A stretch of DNA of 64,000 nucleotides from an uncultured Acholeplasmatales bacterium (GCA_944324805.1 CALUXS010000005.1:25157-89156), one strand, 5' to 3'; shown: positions 21,656-55,547, counted from the first letter of the stretch. Made by a program: numbers and translations. The notes: a model not told the origin generated them from the letters alone.

Positions 21656-22145
21656 TTTTTCTCTTATCCTCTAAAAAAATTATATCAATAGCTAACATAA
21701 TAACTCCAATTACTAATGACATATCAGCAATGTTGAAAACAGGAAAATGATAATTTCCAAAAATGAACTCAAAAAAATCAACAACTCCACTTTTTAAACC
21801 AAAAACAGTATATAATCTATCATACAAATTACCATAAGCACCTGCAATTATTAAACATAAAGCAAATGAATACATTTTTTTGCTTTTGAAGTCATTTTTT
21901 GTAGCAAATACTAATGCTATTATAGTTGCAATTATACTGATAAATGATAATAAAAGTGTACTGTTATCTCCAATTCCCCATGCTGCCCCTTTATTATATA
22001 CTAAAGTTATATTAAAAAAATTAGCAATTACAGGAATTTCCTCTCCAACACGTAAATTTTCTTCAACTATTACTTTTGTTACTTGATCCAAAATAATTAT
22101 TAATGCAACTACTAAAAAAGTTAGAATAAAATTTTTTTTAGTCAT
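21633..22145 (-). CDS. lspA: Lipoprotein signal peptidase (signal peptidase II)
   Basis: DQ.TK, NKGAAWG and FNIADMSL motifs. Start chosen at ATG 22143-22145 behind GGAGG. Confidence 0.9.
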   Translation of the reverse strand: MTKKNFILTFLVVALIIILDQVTKVIVEENLRVGEEIPVIANFFNITLVYNKGAAWGIGDNSTLLLSFISIIATIIALVFATKNDFKSKKMYSFALCLIIAGAYGNLYDRLYTVFGLKSGVVDFFEFIFGNYHFPVFNIADMSLVIGVIMLAIDIIFLEDKRKNAKKVSS

Positions 22146-49595: not shown

Positions 49596-49684
49596 ATTAA
49601 TCACCATTTTCCACGACAATTATACCATTCTTTGTTCATTTTGCAATAAAGCAAATTAAATGCGTTTATAATTATCATAATATA

Positions 49685-49713
49685 TTGATTTTAATCAATA
49701 AAAATGGTATCAT
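49685..49713 (+). promoter_or_regulatory. Promoter of the lipoprotein pair (TTGATT-17-TGgTATCAT)
   Basis: -35 at 49685-49690 lies inside the palindrome ATTGAT-TTTA-ATCAAT (49684-49699). Extended -10 at 49708-49713. RBS AAGGAG precedes the ATG at 49751. Confidence 0.55.
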
Positions 49714-49750
49714 ATTAAACGCTAGAGTTTTAAAAAAAGGAGTTTTTTAA

Positions 49751-52700
49751 ATGTTAAAAATTGATATTTTTTCAACGAAAATGCGTAGAATTTTATCTAT
49801 TTTGATTCTCGCAATTCTTACAATAACAATTACAGGATGTAAATCAAAGGTAGTTGACACTTTGCCTTATGATGAAAACTATCTAACTGTAGGTAATTAT
49901 TCTGTTACTAAAGGTGAGGTATGGAATGAATTAAAATGGAATGCTGCTGATTTATTTGATACTAAAGCACAAGAGGCAGTTCTTAATAAATACATTGAAG
50001 ACATTAAAAATGTAATGTCTAATCCATCTGATTCTAAGTATACAGAATATAAAACACGTCTTCAAAGTTATCTTGTTGAAGATGTATATGATTTGACATT
50101 CTCACTTGAAAGTCATGATGAAGAAATTGAAGACTTAAAAGCGGATGCAAAAACAAAAAGTATTAAAAAATATGCTGATGAAGTATATCAAAATTATAAG
50201 GTTGACATTAAAACCGAAGAAATCATTAATGCACTTGAAGCAAATGATTATGACAAATTAAGCCCTCTATATGAAAATTATTATTTAAATTATGCAAAAG
50301 AACTTCTAGCAATTGACAAATTAAATGAAGAAATAGAGGAAAAAAATAAAGAAGCTTTAGAAGATGATGATGAAGATACAGTTGGTTACTTCACTAAATC
50401 TGAAATTGTTTCTAAATACAAGGATAAATATTTACATCAAGGATATGTAGATGTCATAATGATTAAATTTGCTTCTGAAACTGAAGCTAAAGAAACTCTA
50501 AGAGCATTTGGTTTGATAGTTAATGATGAAAATCAATTATGCTATCTAACTAATACACCTTCTAATTTTAATGATTATAAAAAATATTATGATGAATTTG
50601 ACTTTGATGAAAAAACTGAAAGTGATTATTTACCATTAGACTCATATTATGGTAGTTCTATTATTTTACAATTATATATTGCAATGTATAACTATATTTA
50701 CACTTATCGTGATGCAATAGAAAACATAGATGTAAACATGCAAAATATTATTGATCAACGTAGTACTACTGCTGCTTTAATTGAGACATATAATGATTTA
50801 GAAATCAAAAATAAAGATGAAGAAGATAAACGTATTGATGATATAATGAAACAAGTTAATTCTGATGGTCCAAATGAATTCGTTCGTTATACTGCAGAAG
50901 AAATTAACGATATTGATTCAAGTTTATACGATTACATCTATGAGACACTTCAAACACCTGAAGAAACTATTAAAGATGGTGAAGAACAATCAGATAAAAT
51001 TAATCGTTATACTACTTCTCCAAAATCTATTAATAGCAACTACTATATGATTTATAAAGTTGATTACGAAGAAAATGTTGCAGATGATAAATTATATGAT
51101 AGTGAAGATGATACTGATGAACTATACAATAAAATAGTTAAAGATGAAAATTTATATTCTAGAATCATAAAAGATTTAACTAATGAAGATTTAACTTCTT
51201 CTTATATTGATGAAAAATTAAATGCTGAAATGGAAAACGTTAAAGTTAAGATTTTCGATAAGAGTATCGAAATTGCTTATAGTGTAGACCACTCAGATTA
51301 TAATAAAACATTATCTAAAGCTCCTGATACAAATACAATTGCTACATTTGAATATGATGGCACTACTATTTCATATTATTTAACTACTGAAGATGGAAAA
51401 GGATTATGGGATATTCTAGAGTATCGCAATGGTACTTCTGTTGCTTCTAATTTAATATCTACAAAAATGATTAAAGACTCAGAAGAGTATAAATCAATTC
51501 CTCAGGAAGATATTGATTCTTACTACAAATCAATAGAGTACGTTTTAGCATCATTTGCAAACGATGCTTTAGCTTCAAATGGATATCCTGCTTCAATTGG
51601 TAAGTATAATTTCTTGATGTTATATTATCATACAGCAGATGTTGATCAAATTGTTGATGATGTTTTCAAAGTAAGTAACGCAAGTTCTCAAATCTTAACT
51701 AACTATATTGCTGATGATACTCTTGAATTCTTTAACTATTATAATGAAATTGCATATAAAAATTTCTTTTCAGTAAACGCAACTGATTTAAAAATATATT
51801 TAGATAAAGACGAAGATGGCGAAGCAGATGAAATCGATTGGAATACTGAAGTTGTTACAATAGATGGTGAATTTAAAGGAATGCTTCTAAAGGATGTTGC
51901 AAAGGAACTTGTAGAAACTATTTACACAAAAGTTGCTGCTACTTCTGGAGATCATAAAACTGCCTTAACAGATATTGTATCTACTTACAATTCAACTAGT
52001 CGTTTTAATCCTAAAGAAGGCGGCCAATTTGATGATGATGAATATGATCCAATTGGTTCAGAATGGGATTATGCAAAATTCAAAAGAACAGGTCTTGTTA
52101 TTTCAACAGAAGATTTAACTGTTACTAACTCTTCAACTGATATTGATATTAACATTATGAATAAACTTCGTGATGTATATATGGATAATAATTTGGCTGA
52201 AAAAGAATATTCAGAAGTTATTTTAGAAAATCCTAATGATGAAAATGCTTTGGTTGAAGCTAATAATTGTCTAAATTATTTCTTAATTACTGGTTATGAA
52301 AAACCAGCAAGTGCTAAGTTTGAAGCATATAAGGATGTTGATGGAATTTATCAAAATATTGTATACAAATACAATGAAGATTATATTACAGTTGAAAATG
52401 TTTATAATGATGGAGATATGCTTAATAAGAATCAAATAGAAGCTTACATACTTGAATATTTAGCATCTTCTACTTCTAACTTACTTCCAACTGATATATC
52501 TACTAGTCTTACAAATTTCTTAAGTCCAATTTTAACTCGTTACCAAGATACTGCTACTCAAATAGAAATCATTTATAACTATGTATCAAATGGAGACAAC
52601 TCTGCATATCAATTTGCTGATTCAAATAATAATGAACGTTTTGAAACATTAAGAGAAATTAACATTAGAGTTGCAGACGATTATAAAACTTATGAAAATG

Positions 52701-52780
52701 AAGAAGATGAAGCAAAATTCAATAATTTTGCTGGTTGGTGGGACAAATTAAAAGAATTGTCAAATGGAGGTAATAAATAA
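49751..52780 (+). CDS. Giant acidic lipoprotein, PrsA/SurA-like with degenerate parvulin-like modules
   Basis: Signal peptide plus lipobox LTITITG|C. N-terminal YLTVGNYSVTKGEVWNELK resembles the PrsA/SurA N-domain. The parvulin-equivalent segments read ATDLKIYL ... NYFLITGY, so both His are absent. D/E/N/Y-rich. Confidence 0.6.
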   Translation: MLKIDIFSTKMRRILSILILAILTITITGCKSKVVDTLPYDENYLTVGNYSVTKGEVWNELKWNAADLFDTKAQEAVLNKYIEDIKNVMSNPSDSKYTEYKTRLQSYLVEDVYDLTFSLESHDEEIEDLKADAKTKSIKKYADEVYQNYKVDIKTEEIINALEANDYDKLSPLYENYYLNYAKELLAIDKLNEEIEEKNKEALEDDDEDTVGYFTKSEIVSKYKDKYLHQGYVDVIMIKFASETEAKETLRAFGLIVNDENQLCYLTNTPSNFNDYKKYYDEFDFDEKTESDYLPLDSYYGSSIILQLYIAMYNYIYTYRDAIENIDVNMQNIIDQRSTTAALIETYNDLEIKNKDEEDKRIDDIMKQVNSDGPNEFVRYTAEEINDIDSSLYDYIYETLQTPEETIKDGEEQSDKINRYTTSPKSINSNYYMIYKVDYEENVADDKLYDSEDDTDELYNKIVKDENLYSRIIKDLTNEDLTSSYIDEKLNAEMENVKVKIFDKSIEIAYSVDHSDYNKTLSKAPDTNTIATFEYDGTTISYYLTTEDGKGLWDILEYRNGTSVASNLISTKMIKDSEEYKSIPQEDIDSYYKSIEYVLASFANDALASNGYPASIGKYNFLMLYYHTADVDQIVDDVFKVSNASSQILTNYIADDTLEFFNYYNEIAYKNFFSVNATDLKIYLDKDEDGEADEIDWNTEVVTIDGEFKGMLLKDVAKELVETIYTKVAATSGDHKTALTDIVSTYNSTSRFNPKEGGQFDDDEYDPIGSEWDYAKFKRTGLVISTEDLTVTNSSTDIDINIMNKLRDVYMDNNLAEKEYSEVILENPNDENALVEANNCLNYFLITGYEKPASAKFEAYKDVDGIYQNIVYKYNEDYITVENVYNDGDMLNKNQIEAYILEYLASSTSNLLPTDISTSLTNFLSPILTRYQDTATQIEIIYNYVSNGDNSAYQFADSNNNERFETLREINIRVADDYKTYENEEDEAKFNNFAGWWDKLKELSNGGNK

Positions 52781-55503
52781 TGAAGTTAATTAAAAAAATT
52801 GGCTCTTTTGCATTAGCTATTGCTTTGATTGGTACTCTTTCTTCTTGTAAGAAAGAATACCGTAATCAAAACATTCCATATGGTACTATTAGTTCATCTA
52901 AAGTTGTACTTAGCTCAAATGATGGTAAGTATAGCGTTTCAGAAAAAGAACTATACAATAGACTTCGTTATAACAATGGTTACTCAGTCTTTGAAAGAAA
53001 ATTAAATGAGTTCGTTTATAAAAATGAAATCGATAGTTTCAAATATGAAGGCGAAGATAAAATAACTATTGATGAAAAAGTTGCTGAAGCCGTTTATGGA
53101 ACTTCTGATCCAGAAGCATTGTTGGCTAAGCAAAAACTTGACGAATCTAAAGAAGATAGCGAAAAAGAACTTGTTATTTCAAGAAAAAAATATGTTGATT
53201 CAATGTCTCAACAAGGAATTAAATTAACTGAAGAACAGTTAGTTTTTGATACAATTAACAAAGATACAAAACATGTTTCATTCTCTAATTTGCCTGATTC
53301 TTTAATTAAATATTTAGCTATGGATTTAATTAAGGAAGATGCTGGAATCACATATTTGAAAAGCATTGTTGATAAAGAAGAAATTCCTGATGAAGATGAT
53401 TCAAATATTTTGAATAAAAATACTTACTACTTCGATGATGCTGCTTTTGAAAACCAATATAATTCATATTATAAAACTTATAATACCGCTCATGGTATTA
53501 TTCTACCTTTCTCAACATTAAAGAGTGCGAAGGATGCTTTAAATAACGCTTTAAATACATTAGGTTACTCACAACTTGACGAGAGTAATTCACTTGAAGT
53601 ATATGTACAAATGTTCAATAATTACTATAATTATGAAGATGAAAAGTTAACTACTTCTACTATAGATAAAAATGATAAAACCACATTCGTTACAGATGAA
53701 GAAAATGATGATTTAAAGGATTTCTCAGATAATGTAAAAAATTTATTCTTAAAGTCACTTTCTGATGACAACAAATACTTAACTTCTCCTGTTAATATTG
53801 ATGGTAAATACTACTTAATCTATAGAAATGATGTAGAATACTTAACAGGTGGTTCTGAAGAGTTACCTTTCGAAAAGATTCCTGAGGACAAATTAGAAAG
53901 TATTAAAGCACAATGTAAAGAAGATTATATTGAATCTCAAGCTTCTTCAGTTCAAAGTAAAGTATATAGTGATAGATTAAAAGATTTAGAAATTAAAATT
54001 TATGACCCATTCATTGAAAATACATTTGCAAATAGTAATGATTTCTATGAATATGTTACTGATTCAAATAATGACTATATCTTAACTTCAAACAATGAAG
54101 ATTTAAAATATAGTGTTTCTGAATATTTTACTGATTTACAAAATTATAATATTAATTCTATTGCAACTGATTTATTAATTAACAAAATGCTATATAGTAC
54201 TCAGTATAGTTACTTAGATGAAGATGCAGAAAAGGAATTTAGAGATACTCTTAAAGATAAAGTAAAAAGCTTTAAAAAGGGTAAGGAAAACCTAAATAAA
54301 AACTATGGTGAAACTAATTTCTTATTCTATAGCTATGGATATACAACTACTGAAGAAGTTGTATTAAACAATATGGCATCTACAATTAAAGAATCTTATA
54401 TAAATGATTTCCTTTATACATCTTTAGTAACAGATAATCATGAAATAAATATGGATAATGTAGGATTCCTAAATAATATTTTAGATACTGCATTAGAACA
54501 ATTAAATGATACATTATTATTTGATATAAATATTGATCACATTCTAATTTCTATTGATAATAATGCCGATGGCGAAGCTGATGATATGGATGTATTCTTA
54601 GCTTCTATATCACCTGAAGAAAAGGCAAAATTTGAAGCAGCTGTAAAAGAATTAAATGATGCTATTATTAGAGAAGTTAATTCTATCAATGGTAGAACAA
54701 CAATAGAAAAATTAACTTACATTGTTGAAGCATTTAACAATGGTTATAGAACTCATGATGGAAAGAGCTGGGATGATTATAAAACTTATAATTTCATTTT
54801 AACTGCTGAATCTCTTGGTGATGTTGATGAATCTAATGTAACAAGTTATGTAGAACCATTTAGAGATTATGTTGAAGCAATGTTTAAAAAAGCAGTTGAA
54901 GAAAACCTTGAAATTCCTGAAGATGAAGAGGATCAAGGAAGATTATATTTTGCAACAGCTGGTGTTGATACTACTAATTATACGATTAATGATTTATGTC
55001 AAACTGTGTATGGTTACCATATGTTAAGTTTAAATTCTTATGAGAAAAATGAAGATGAATTAAATTTCAAATTTGAAGCTTCTTCTGATTCTGATGGCGA
55101 CTATAGAGATTTAAAAATCATCTTAGATGAAAATGATGTAGATGATGAAAATGATGATGTATACTATATAACTGATGTCTACAATAGTGACTCAGCAAAA
55201 CCTAGCATGAATCAAGTTGTTACATATTATGTAGAATATGTTAAGAATGATGTAACTTCTTTCACAACATCTCTTAAGAATGATTTAGCCACTCTTTTGA
55301 ATACTTCTATTGATAAATATAAATCAAGCACATTCCAAAATTATTTACTTGTTAAGAGTTTAGGTAAAGTTGAAGTTGATGAAAATTTAAGCAAATATTA
55401 TAGTTATGAAGGATACTTAACATATCTACAAAATCAAGCTGAAAGTTATGATTCTACTTCAGATTACAATAAATGGTATACTGAATATACTTGGAATAGA
55501 TAA
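52780..55503 (+). CDS. Giant acidic lipoprotein, PrsA/SurA-like with a His-retaining parvulin-like module
   Basis: Signal peptide plus lipobox GTLSS|C. Its ATG overlaps the upstream stop (TAATG), behind GGAGG. Parvulin-type motifs are NIDHILIS (His codon 54538-54540) and VYGYHMLSL (GYH at 55012-55020). A degenerate upstream module reads TAHGIILPF ... GKYYLIYR. Confidence 0.65.
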   Translation: MKLIKKIGSFALAIALIGTLSSCKKEYRNQNIPYGTISSSKVVLSSNDGKYSVSEKELYNRLRYNNGYSVFERKLNEFVYKNEIDSFKYEGEDKITIDEKVAEAVYGTSDPEALLAKQKLDESKEDSEKELVISRKKYVDSMSQQGIKLTEEQLVFDTINKDTKHVSFSNLPDSLIKYLAMDLIKEDAGITYLKSIVDKEEIPDEDDSNILNKNTYYFDDAAFENQYNSYYKTYNTAHGIILPFSTLKSAKDALNNALNTLGYSQLDESNSLEVYVQMFNNYYNYEDEKLTTSTIDKNDKTTFVTDEENDDLKDFSDNVKNLFLKSLSDDNKYLTSPVNIDGKYYLIYRNDVEYLTGGSEELPFEKIPEDKLESIKAQCKEDYIESQASSVQSKVYSDRLKDLEIKIYDPFIENTFANSNDFYEYVTDSNNDYILTSNNEDLKYSVSEYFTDLQNYNINSIATDLLINKMLYSTQYSYLDEDAEKEFRDTLKDKVKSFKKGKENLNKNYGETNFLFYSYGYTTTEEVVLNNMASTIKESYINDFLYTSLVTDNHEINMDNVGFLNNILDTALEQLNDTLLFDINIDHILISIDNNADGEADDMDVFLASISPEEKAKFEAAVKELNDAIIREVNSINGRTTIEKLTYIVEAFNNGYRTHDGKSWDDYKTYNFILTAESLGDVDESNVTSYVEPFRDYVEAMFKKAVEENLEIPEDEEDQGRLYFATAGVDTTNYTINDLCQTVYGYHMLSLNSYEKNEDELNFKFEASSDSDGDYRDLKIILDENDVDDENDDVYYITDVYNSDSAKPSMNQVVTYYVEYVKNDVTSFTTSLKNDLATLLNTSIDKYKSSTFQNYLLVKSLGKVEVDENLSKYYSYEGYLTYLQNQAESYDSTSDYNKWYTEYTWNR

Positions 55504-55507
55504 TTTA

Positions 55508-55547
55508 AAAAGAGATTGATTATATAAAAATCAATCTCTTTTTTTTA
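55508..55547 (+). terminator. Terminator after the lipoprotein operon
   Basis: agagattgatt-atataaa-aatcaatctct followed by a T8 run. Confidence 0.8.

Follow-up and report, generated by a model that had tools for sequence, protein, structure and literature searches.

We report that two adjacent genes in a 64,000-nucleotide stretch of DNA from an uncultured Acholeplasmatales bacterium, referred to here as open reading frames (ORFs) A and B, probably encode a pair of membrane-anchored surface lipoproteins descended from PrsA. Each protein would be a doubled and expanded foldase, the parvulin site being preserved in B but not in A, and their family would replace canonical PrsA. All coordinates refer to the whole 64,000-nucleotide stretch (the window), which is AT-rich (~28% G+C) and was read with the standard genetic code. 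The host genome is 96% complete and belongs to a wall-less, Anaeroplasma-like gut bacterium. An earlier note on the same DNA had proposed a foldase/chaperone pair consisting of one potentially catalytic protein and one pseudo-peptidyl-prolyl isomerase (pseudo-PPIase). Profile and structure searches find the parvulin and SurA_N likeness that this proposal implies, and the proposal is supported at the level of sequence comparison and predicted structure.

The two ORFs lie head to tail, with the stop codon of A and the start codon of B overlapping in TAATG by one common base, and encode proteins of 1009 and 907 amino acids (aa); the coordinates and the overlap in the earlier note are borne out. 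Both proteins begin with the signal peptides and lipoboxes reported there (ITG/C in A and LSS/C in B), and the cysteines concerned, Cys30 and Cys23, are invariant in homologs. Genes for Lgt and LspA are present in the host genome, and export and lipid anchoring of both proteins are predicted from the lipoboxes, the invariant cysteines and these two enzymes. The LspA gene (Peptidase_A8, E 1.8e-37) is encoded in the window, at 21675-22112 on the minus strand. The mature proteins are acidic, as had been noted, with isoelectric points of 4.23 (A) and 4.33 (B), 19-20% D+E, ~9% N and ~9% Y, and B contains only 6 His in 885 mature residues.

Direct comparison of A and B by BLASTP gives a weak match (23% identity, E 7e-8). 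Profiles built from A-homologs and from B-homologs align from end to end (hhalign probability 100%, E 7.6e-59), which establishes the two as genuine paralogs. No third paralog was found in the host genome, which holds only A and B. Word-indexed searches returned 15 B-like and 102 A-like clusters, all unannotated or labelled 'hypothetical', those with a named source coming from Anaeroplasmataceae or Acholeplasmatales; an exhaustive profile search extended the set to 358 cluster representatives at E<=0.001. Our literature search turned up no publication on such proteins from either Acholeplasma or Anaeroplasma.

The connection to PrsA was made through a second group of proteins. A class-level scan with the Pfam Rotamase model led to membrane-anchored proteins of 750-795 aa from a neighbouring taxonomic family, each with an N-terminal transmembrane (TM) anchor followed by two PrsA units (L033:1328-3571, L034:1275-3608, L035:367-2691 and L057:211-2439), which we call double-PrsA proteins. 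Near the C-terminus they have a canonical, Pfam-positive parvulin domain (Rotamase E 4e-15). Upstream of this domain lie landmarks that they share with A and B: a first module that is degenerate and ends in YYFVYKL, a tail reading LKIYD, and TVATYKFDGETIKITADDLY as the second hairpin. The B-family profile aligns with them over 458 columns (hhalign 97.4%, E 1.4e-11), and at the end of this alignment DHILISVDNN of B stands opposite ASHILFEFDKD, the first strand of their Rotamase domain. The link is by profile-profile comparison only, BLASTP of B against a double-PrsA protein being not significant; the hidden Markov model (HMM) of the A family directly matches one double-PrsA protein (E 6.5e-11). 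The order of parts is the same as in A and B: chaperone, degenerate parvulin, LKIYD tail, second chaperone, second parvulin. The double-PrsA proteins differ from A and B in having a TM anchor instead of a lipobox, a canonical second parvulin and a shorter chain, in lacking the DxDxDG loop described below, and in occurring in genomes with penicillin-binding proteins (PBPs). They appear to represent an evolutionary step between PrsA and the giant lipoproteins.

Comparison with PrsA itself was carried out domain by domain with hhalign, the reference being an alignment of eight ordinary PrsA proteins. The PrsA/SurA-like chaperone segments that the earlier note had seen at the N-termini are supported by these comparisons, and a second such segment in each protein matches most clearly, at 91-92% over PrsA ~34-138: the second chaperone segment of B aligns with PrsA 36-122 (92.0%, E 6.7e-7) and that of A with PrsA 34-138 (91.2%, E 1e-6). 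The first chaperone segment of A aligns with PrsA 33-137 (71.3%, E 3.6e-5), that of B reaches 28.8% against the PrsA N-domain, and for this segment of B a further comparison, with the A1 profile, reaches 76.5% against PrsA positions 1-83. The C-terminal module of the A class, taken as an unselected set, aligns with PrsA 158-267, the parvulin domain (87.5%, E 3.6e-6). Sequence support for the internal duplication comes from the chaperone segments only (S1 vs S2 40-49%, E ~2e-4).

Several smaller proteins have related architectures. The N-terminus of the A-family HMM matches PrsA-like lipoproteins of 284-294 aa at E 5e-7 to 9e-6 per genome; two of these (L052:417-1268, minus strand, and L053:498-1379, plus strand) have a degenerate, His-less parvulin with a sub-threshold Rotamase_2 match. 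Each adjoins a canonical prsA gene, so that a catalytic gene beside a degenerate one exists at the level of the single unit too. A 510-aa lipoprotein (L054:250-1779, minus strand) combines two SurA_N-like segments with a single canonical parvulin (Rotamase E 4e-20); its N-terminus is matched by the A-family HMM and it represents another intermediate architecture. Separately, a 632-aa lipoprotein ORF in a genome of ~1 Mb (L032, G067:C2) contains the parvulin motifs HIRHILVKT...YGIHFMIMQR split by an insert of ~200 aa, and its Pfam match covers only the first 60 positions of Rotamase. It may be an example of a third way in which parvulin lipoproteins have expanded.

Structures were predicted with AlphaFold2 (AF2) from family alignments, with a mean predicted local distance difference test (pLDDT) of 87.5 and a predicted TM-score (pTM) of 0.76 for B, and a pLDDT of 85.4 and a pTM of 0.77 for A. 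Both models contain the same block twice, consisting of a beta-hairpin (YSVSEKELY in B, YSVTKGEVW in A), a helical bundle and a beta-alpha-alpha-alpha-beta-alpha-beta-beta unit. In the second unit of B, DSSP assigns a strand at 582-592 with DHILIS, three helices, a strand at 672-683 with ESLGD, a helix at 692-707 with YVEPFRDYVEAMF, a short strand at 740-742 and a final strand at 745-755 with YGYHMLSL. In the model this order is that of the four-stranded parvulin sheet (beta-alpha3-beta-alpha-beta2), with ~90 and ~45 extra residues, and the unit in A is predicted to be analogous. The first parvulin module of B aligns with its degenerate counterpart in the double-PrsA proteins (ICIITIEF...YYFVYKL), and its assignment as a parvulin module is based on this alignment and on predicted topology. 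The LEIKIYDPFIEN segment that closes the first unit of B aligns with their LKIYD, and I407 and D409 are invariant. The modules of the two proteins are as follows.

49751-52780, plus strand: ORF A, 1009 aa; PrsA-like lipoprotein in doubled form that lacks the parvulin His pair (putative pseudo-PPIase paralog)
49751-49840, plus strand: A, predicted signal peptide and lipobox ITG/C (Cys30); C30 invariant in 50 homologs
49877-50362, plus strand: A unit 1, SurA_N/PrsA-N-like segment (hairpin YSVTKGEVW and helices); AF2 and hhalign to PrsA 33-137
50447-51067, plus strand: A unit 1, parvulin-like module, degenerate and carrying large helical insertions (VIMIKF...YYMIYKV); AF2 topology only
51335-51763, plus strand: A unit 2, second SurA_N-like segment; hhalign to PrsA 34-138
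51770-52297, plus strand: A unit 2, parvulin-like module; D679 (51785-51787) and N842 (52274-52276) at the His positions
51803-51829, plus strand: A, DxDxDG-type acidic loop DKDEDGEAD after the first parvulin strand; D685 in 155/155, D689 in 148, D693 in 150
52780-55503, plus strand: ORF B, 907 aa; lipoprotein, doubled PrsA-like, His pair kept in the C-terminal module
52780-52848, plus strand: B, predicted signal peptide and lipobox LSS/C (Cys23); C23 invariant in the homolog alignment
52885-53379, plus strand: B unit 1, SurA_N-like segment (hairpin YSVSEKELY and helices); AF2, hhalign of A1 to PrsA 1-83, and double-PrsA alignment
53380-53841, plus strand: B unit 1, degenerate parvulin-like module (HGIILPF...GKYYLIYR); AF2 strand/helix order and double-PrsA alignment
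53884-54036, plus strand: B, long connecting helix (AF2 helix 369-403) and LEIKIYDPFIEN segment closing unit 1; resembles the PrsA C-terminal tail
54067-54507, plus strand: B unit 2, second SurA_N-like segment (YILTSNNEDLKYSVSEYF...); hhalign to PrsA 36-122
54523-55044, plus strand: B unit 2, parvulin-like module with inserts of ~90 aa and ~45 aa relative to a classical parvulin; H587 (54538-54540), E677-x-L-G, F694, T742, G745-Y-H747 (55018-55020)
54556-54582, plus strand: B, DxDxDG-type acidic loop DNNADGEAD after the first parvulin strand; D593 in 75/75, D597 in 68, G598 in 72, D601 in 66
55111-55500, plus strand: B, C-terminal beta-hairpin and helical region, common to A; AF2 and full-length A alignment

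Foldseek searches of the PDB with full-length B return only chaperones of the PrsA/SurA class among the top ten matches: PrsA, YacD, the H. pylori parvulin chaperone (6bhf, 5ez1), the leptospiral LIC12922, PEB4/Cj1289 and SurA. The best is the PrsA structure 5tvl (E 3.2e-3, probability 1.0, TM-score 0.55 on the target), and the Mycoplasma pneumoniae lipoprotein Mpn444 follows at rank 11 (E 1.3). With full-length A, Mpn444 (9gn0) comes first (E 0.02, probability 0.20, TM-score ~0.12), followed by PrsA of L. lactis, S. mutans and S. pneumoniae and then by YacD, PEB4 and SurA. The structural argument is drawn from the consistency of these lists of predicted-model matches and from no single score.

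The motifs reported in the earlier note are all in place. In B these are DHILIS (H587), SLGD (678-681) and YGYHMLSL (H747), with the two His 160 aa apart, and in the degenerate earlier module TAHGIILPF at 236 and GKYYLIYR at 342. The A equivalents, GYVDVIMIKF at 231, NYYMIYKV at 430, ATDLKIYL (D679) and NYFLITGY (N842), align with the motifs of B. Among 75 full-length B-class representatives H587 is kept in 73, L589 in 74, E677 in 73, L679 in 73, F694 in 74 and T742 in 65, while G745 and H747 are present in all 72 that align there. With only 6 His in B, the near-invariance of two of them is more than would be expected by chance. The reference residues of parvulins are the dual His H59 and H157, on strands beta1 and beta4, with C113 and S154 in Pin1, and D154 and S152 in PrsA. 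The segment TxYGYH(M/L/I)L of B mirrors TxYGYHII of PrsA, a pattern that T742 also fits, and E677 is near-invariant in the B class. Among 155 A-class proteins the first His position is R in 72, H in 39 and N in 16, and the second is N in 102 and H in 42; ORF A itself has D679 and N842, and the first modules of A and B have no dual His.

The division into one copy with the His pair and one without, also claimed in the earlier note, is real and conserved among relatives. In the tandem pairs of G005, G011, G029 and the host genome, one copy has the His pair and the other lacks both residues. In the G083 pair one copy lacks both His and its partner has the second only, and in the G010 pair both copies have the His pair. 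A maximum-likelihood tree recovers the A and B clades of the host's family as monophyletic (100/99 support), with deeper relations unresolved; in the same tree the duplication behind the G010 pair is recent and separate, and the G083 pair joins as well, subject to a long-branch caveat. All eight single-copy orthologs from other Acholeplasmatales families (f2, f4) read SHLL...FGWHLI, the two exceptions coming from family f3, where the G003 protein has neither His and the G008 protein the second only.

The most conserved motif of the superfamily is the loop D-x-[DN]-x-D-G-x-x-D, which follows the first parvulin strand and is kept in the His-less paralog too. Canonical PrsA and the double-PrsA proteins lack it. 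From its sequence it looks like a calcium-binding loop.

In our sample of the order Acholeplasmatales the family is present in 61 of 61 genomes, the B profile matching 58 of them, whereas Pfam Rotamase (PF00639) matches none of the 61. The family is mostly single-copy across the order; in the host's family the A-then-B tandem recurs in the genomes where both genes were located on one contig. The host genome has no gene matching Rotamase, Rotamase_2, Rotamase_3 or SurA_N_3; weak matches to SurA_N_3 and Rotamase_2 (L001, L002) were spurious, being a polytopic membrane protein and a cytoplasmic protein. At the level of the class we used one set of 200 genomes, in which samples of families are partial and relatives are not independent. 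The giant protein is common in nine taxonomic families (f1, f2, f4, f7, f14, f19, f21, f22 and f28), which carry it in 54 of 67 genomes and have Rotamase in 0 of 67. In families where Rotamase is near-universal (f8-f11, f13, f15, f17, f18, f23, f25 and f26) there are only four A-profile matches, all of them PrsA-type proteins themselves. Across the class the giant family and Rotamase are almost mutually exclusive, and the pattern is that of displacement of ordinary PrsA by an expanded descendant. Neither Pfam Rotamase nor the giant family was found in the class-level samples of f6, f16, f24, f27, f29 and f30, whose extracytoplasmic foldase, if any, may be of the DUF3713 type or more divergent.

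Most carrier families lack PBP transpeptidase genes. A strict tie between the giant protein and loss of the cell wall was rejected, the protein being carried by f21 (12/12 with PBPs) and by parts of f7 and f14. A tandem family pair also occurs in a taxonomic family with PBP genes (L055:690-3551 and L055:3567-6164); its members are a 954-aa protein with a TM anchor and the second His only, and an ~866-aa lipobox protein without His. Wall-less lineages are thus not the only ones with giant forms and tandem pairs.

The evidence is consistent with the following scheme. A PrsA unit, consisting of a SurA_N-type chaperone segment and a parvulin domain, would have been duplicated internally, and large helical and acidic inserts would have swollen the doubled protein to 900-1000 aa. 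Anchored on the outer face of the membrane, A and B could use their chaperone arms to bind unfolded polypeptides leaving the Sec translocon, with which the pair may associate, and the two proteins may form a complex. The C-terminal module of B would provide a parvulin prolyl-isomerase or proline-binding site around H587 and H747, and PPIase activity would be expected there; A, having lost both His, would be a partner without catalysis, serving as chaperone or scaffold. The family would take over from canonical PrsA in Acholeplasmatales and in some neighbouring lineages.

A and B resemble PrsA of Bacillota (the B. subtilis parvulin domain 1ZK6, S. pneumoniae 5tvl, L. lactis 6vj2, S. mutans 7l75) and YacD in being lipoprotein-anchored, with a domain of the SurA/trigger-factor type followed by a parvulin, and B shares the PrsA motifs xHILv, LG, F and TxYGYHii. 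They differ in being 3-4 times larger, with two PrsA units per chain and a degenerate first parvulin. SurA, PEB4 and H. pylori HP0175 (CBF2), which are among the Foldseek matches, likewise combine a chaperone with a parvulin and are ATP-independent foldases that act outside the cytoplasm, but they are soluble periplasmic proteins of diderm bacteria. In SurA, two parvulin domains are inserted in a single chaperone module, whereas A and B contain two complete units of chaperone and parvulin.

Several results weigh against descent from PrsA with a preserved parvulin site in B. Searches of Pfam, NCBIfam and PDB sequences with A and B found no Rotamase, SurA_N or DUF3713: there was no Rotamase match (PF00639, PF13616, PF13145) at E<=10 for A, B or the excised C-terminal modules, Pfam SurA_N models matched neither protein, Pfam and NCBIfam scans of excised C-terminal modules (B and four orthologs) gave no relevant match, and PDB sequence searches, whether started from the single proteins or from the A1 and A2 profiles, yielded chance matches only. 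Of the searches called for by the earlier note, the plain HMM searches were thus blank, and it was AF2 with Foldseek and profile-profile comparison that gave PrsA-like results. The inserts of ~90 and ~45 aa in the second parvulin explain why Pfam Rotamase no longer detects it. An unselected set of B-class C-terminal modules aligns only with PrsA ~248-266, at 43.6% (E 2.4e-4). His-bearing modules score 91.7% against PrsA and 93% against the Rotamase-positive relatives, with HIL, LG, F and GYH colinear, but this set was picked by its His-motif pattern and the two scores are therefore somewhat favoured. The first parvulin-like modules give no hhalign signal against PrsA or against the second modules (probability <=1.3%); of the dual parvulin proposed in the earlier note, the C-terminal module is supported by profile, predicted topology and, in B, the His pair, and the first by predicted topology and the alignment with the double-PrsA proteins. 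No residue of B could be assigned as the counterpart of the parvulin Asp/Cys (Pin1 C113, PrsA D154). No Foldseek E-value for A or B is below 0.001, all being >=3.2e-3; whole-chain queries are penalised by their size and inserts, a difficulty also met in the Mycoplasma work described below. Finally, B. subtilis PrsA can do without its PPIase activity in vivo, and a conserved site need not mean that catalysis matters.

The nearest known system is found in Mycoplasma pneumoniae, where three large lipoproteins, Mdp436, Mdp444 and Mdp489, form a dome on the Sec translocon (Jensen et al., 10.1101/2025.04.25.650208). Each is an internally duplicated PrsA with the arrangement (SurA domain + PPIC domain) x2; the catalytic residues R234, D310 and H494 occur only in Mdp444, in its N-terminal PPIC domain, and hhblits matches of the family are confined to Mycoplasmoidaceae (10.1101/2025.04.25.650208). 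Mpn444 and Mpn436 have been solved by cryo-electron microscopy, and PPIase activity was measured in vitro and reduced by D310A (Keles et al., 10.1101/2024.09.05.611430). Binding of unfolded ADH was also shown, and Mpn436, which lacks the canonical residues, was still active in vitro (10.1101/2024.09.05.611430).

A and B resemble these proteins (Mpn444/436/489; DUF3713, PF12506/IPR022186; PDB 9gn0) in several respects. Both groups are giant mollicute surface lipoproteins (~1000 aa or more) with the architecture (SurA + parvulin/PPIC) x2 and large inserts, both form paralog sets in which one member has the catalytic residues and the others do not, and in both standard sequence searches fail. The A class further resembles Mdp444 in having Arg at the first His position (72/155). 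There are also differences. A and B have no DUF3713 HMM match, and the A1 and A2 profiles do not match the 9gn0 sequence at E<=10; PF12506 likewise had no match in 201 class genomes and five small genomes, a search that is uninformative on absence, its control being silent as well. The conserved site of the A/B family lies in the C-terminal module and keeps both His, whereas that of Mdp444 is N-terminal with Arg at the first His. There are two paralogs in the host and one in most Acholeplasmatales, in contrast to the Mdp trio, and A and B have the conserved DxDxDG loop after the first parvulin strand. The Mdp dome is a trimer over SecYEG-SecDF with a thioredoxin-like partner, and MPN523 is named as a partner of it; A and B are known here from genes and models. 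The family is probably a distant homolog of Mdp444/436/489 and their architectural counterpart. It is best read as a system of a kind known from Mycoplasma, represented by an unannotated, sequence-distinct family whose distribution is wider and older than reported.

A stronger version of this relationship can be put forward tentatively, as possible though not the likelier outcome: that the pair, or the single-copy ortholog, forms a Sec-associated extracellular folding chamber homologous to the M. pneumoniae dome. The doubled-PrsA dome would then be ancient, having arisen before Acholeplasmatales, Mycoplasmatales and several neighbouring lineages separated, and among these lineages are some in which peptidoglycan is still made. 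It would have displaced PrsA and repeatedly given rise to catalytic and scaffold copies by duplication, with the DxDxDG calcium site in a structural or regulatory role.

The alternative that survives best retains the PrsA ancestry and the chaperone function but not the catalysis. A and B would be holdases only, the His pair of B would form a peptide or proline groove without meaningful catalysis, and the division between A and B would reflect client specificity. The A class keeps the surroundings of the site (T/S-x-D-G-Y-N/H, E787, N793) and often has R at the first His, as in Mdp444; Mpn436 was active and bound unfolded ADH in vitro despite lacking the canonical residues, and the Asp/Cys catalytic position of B is not confirmed. 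However, H587 and H747 are nearly invariant across ~75 divergent B-class representatives and the single-copy orthologs, TxYGYH and E-x-LG match PrsA closely, and mutation of D310 in Mpn444 lowered PPIase activity. We regard holdase function alone as unlikely.

Another alternative is that a PrsA-like scaffold was co-opted for a different surface role with no part in folding; it might mediate adhesion, capture nutrients or cations, or form a coat that is antigenic or shields the cell. In their great size, acidity and richness in N and Y the proteins are like many mollicute surface lipoproteins, their best-conserved motif is the calcium-type loop and not a parvulin motif, and the neighbouring genes have no link to secretion. 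This explanation must nevertheless account for a family that is universal in the order sample (61/61), mostly single-copy and complementary to canonical PrsA, a distribution that indicates a housekeeping replacement and not a variable surface antigen. There are no repeats or paralog swarms, the host genome having only A and B, and the parvulin site residues are conserved. We consider co-option decidedly improbable. That the parvulin/SurA resemblance arose by chance from short motifs and AT-rich coding sequence of low complexity, in proteins unrelated to PrsA, would fit the blank HMM-library and PDB sequence searches and the weak Foldseek E-values, but it is already largely refuted and scarcely credible given the uniform top ten Foldseek matches of B, the 97.4% hhalign alignment with Rotamase-positive relatives and its colinear motifs, the mapping of two separate segments to the same PrsA N-domain positions, and the conserved His pair.

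Descent of A and B from PrsA as doubled foldases bears on several wider questions. Extracytoplasmic protein folding in bacteria is poorly understood, and the doubled-PrsA dome has been described only in preprints of 2024-2026. The giant family would give Acholeplasmatales genomes their missing extracytoplasmic foldase and would improve the annotation of hundreds of gut metagenome-assembled genomes. The intermediate forms, which comprise degenerate proteins of 290 aa, a form of 557 aa and the canonical-parvulin proteins of 750-795 aa, offer material for tracing the evolution of the giant proteins from PrsA. Culturable Acholeplasma could serve as non-pathogenic models for dome-type folding machines, and the repeated split into His-retaining and His-less copies amounts to a natural experiment on pseudo-enzyme subunits.

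The arrangement of the two genes is best explained by co-transcription and translational coupling, as judged from the following elements, which flank the pair.

49685-49713, plus strand: promoter-like site TTGATT-17-(TG)TATCAT; lies in the sole intergenic gap 5' of the operon
55507-55543, plus strand: intrinsic terminator, a 15-bp hairpin and T-run, 3' of ORF B at the operon end

The single upstream gap with a promoter-like site, the TAATG overlap and the terminator after B together indicate a two-gene operon. The same upstream gap contains an AGGAG ribosome-binding site before ORF A. Promoter-like sites in this AT-rich region are no commoner than in shuffled sequence, and the site at 49685-49713 was chosen on its position only. 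The span given in the earlier note, 49684-55547, fits these limits, its start taking in the promoter-like site and its end the terminator hairpin. The operon is flanked by divergently and convergently oriented housekeeping genes: upstream lie rlmH and a gene of the beta-lactamase fold, and the downstream genes encode a YhaM-like nuclease and a pullulanase. An inverted repeat at 49684-49699 overlaps the -35 hexamer of the promoter-like site.

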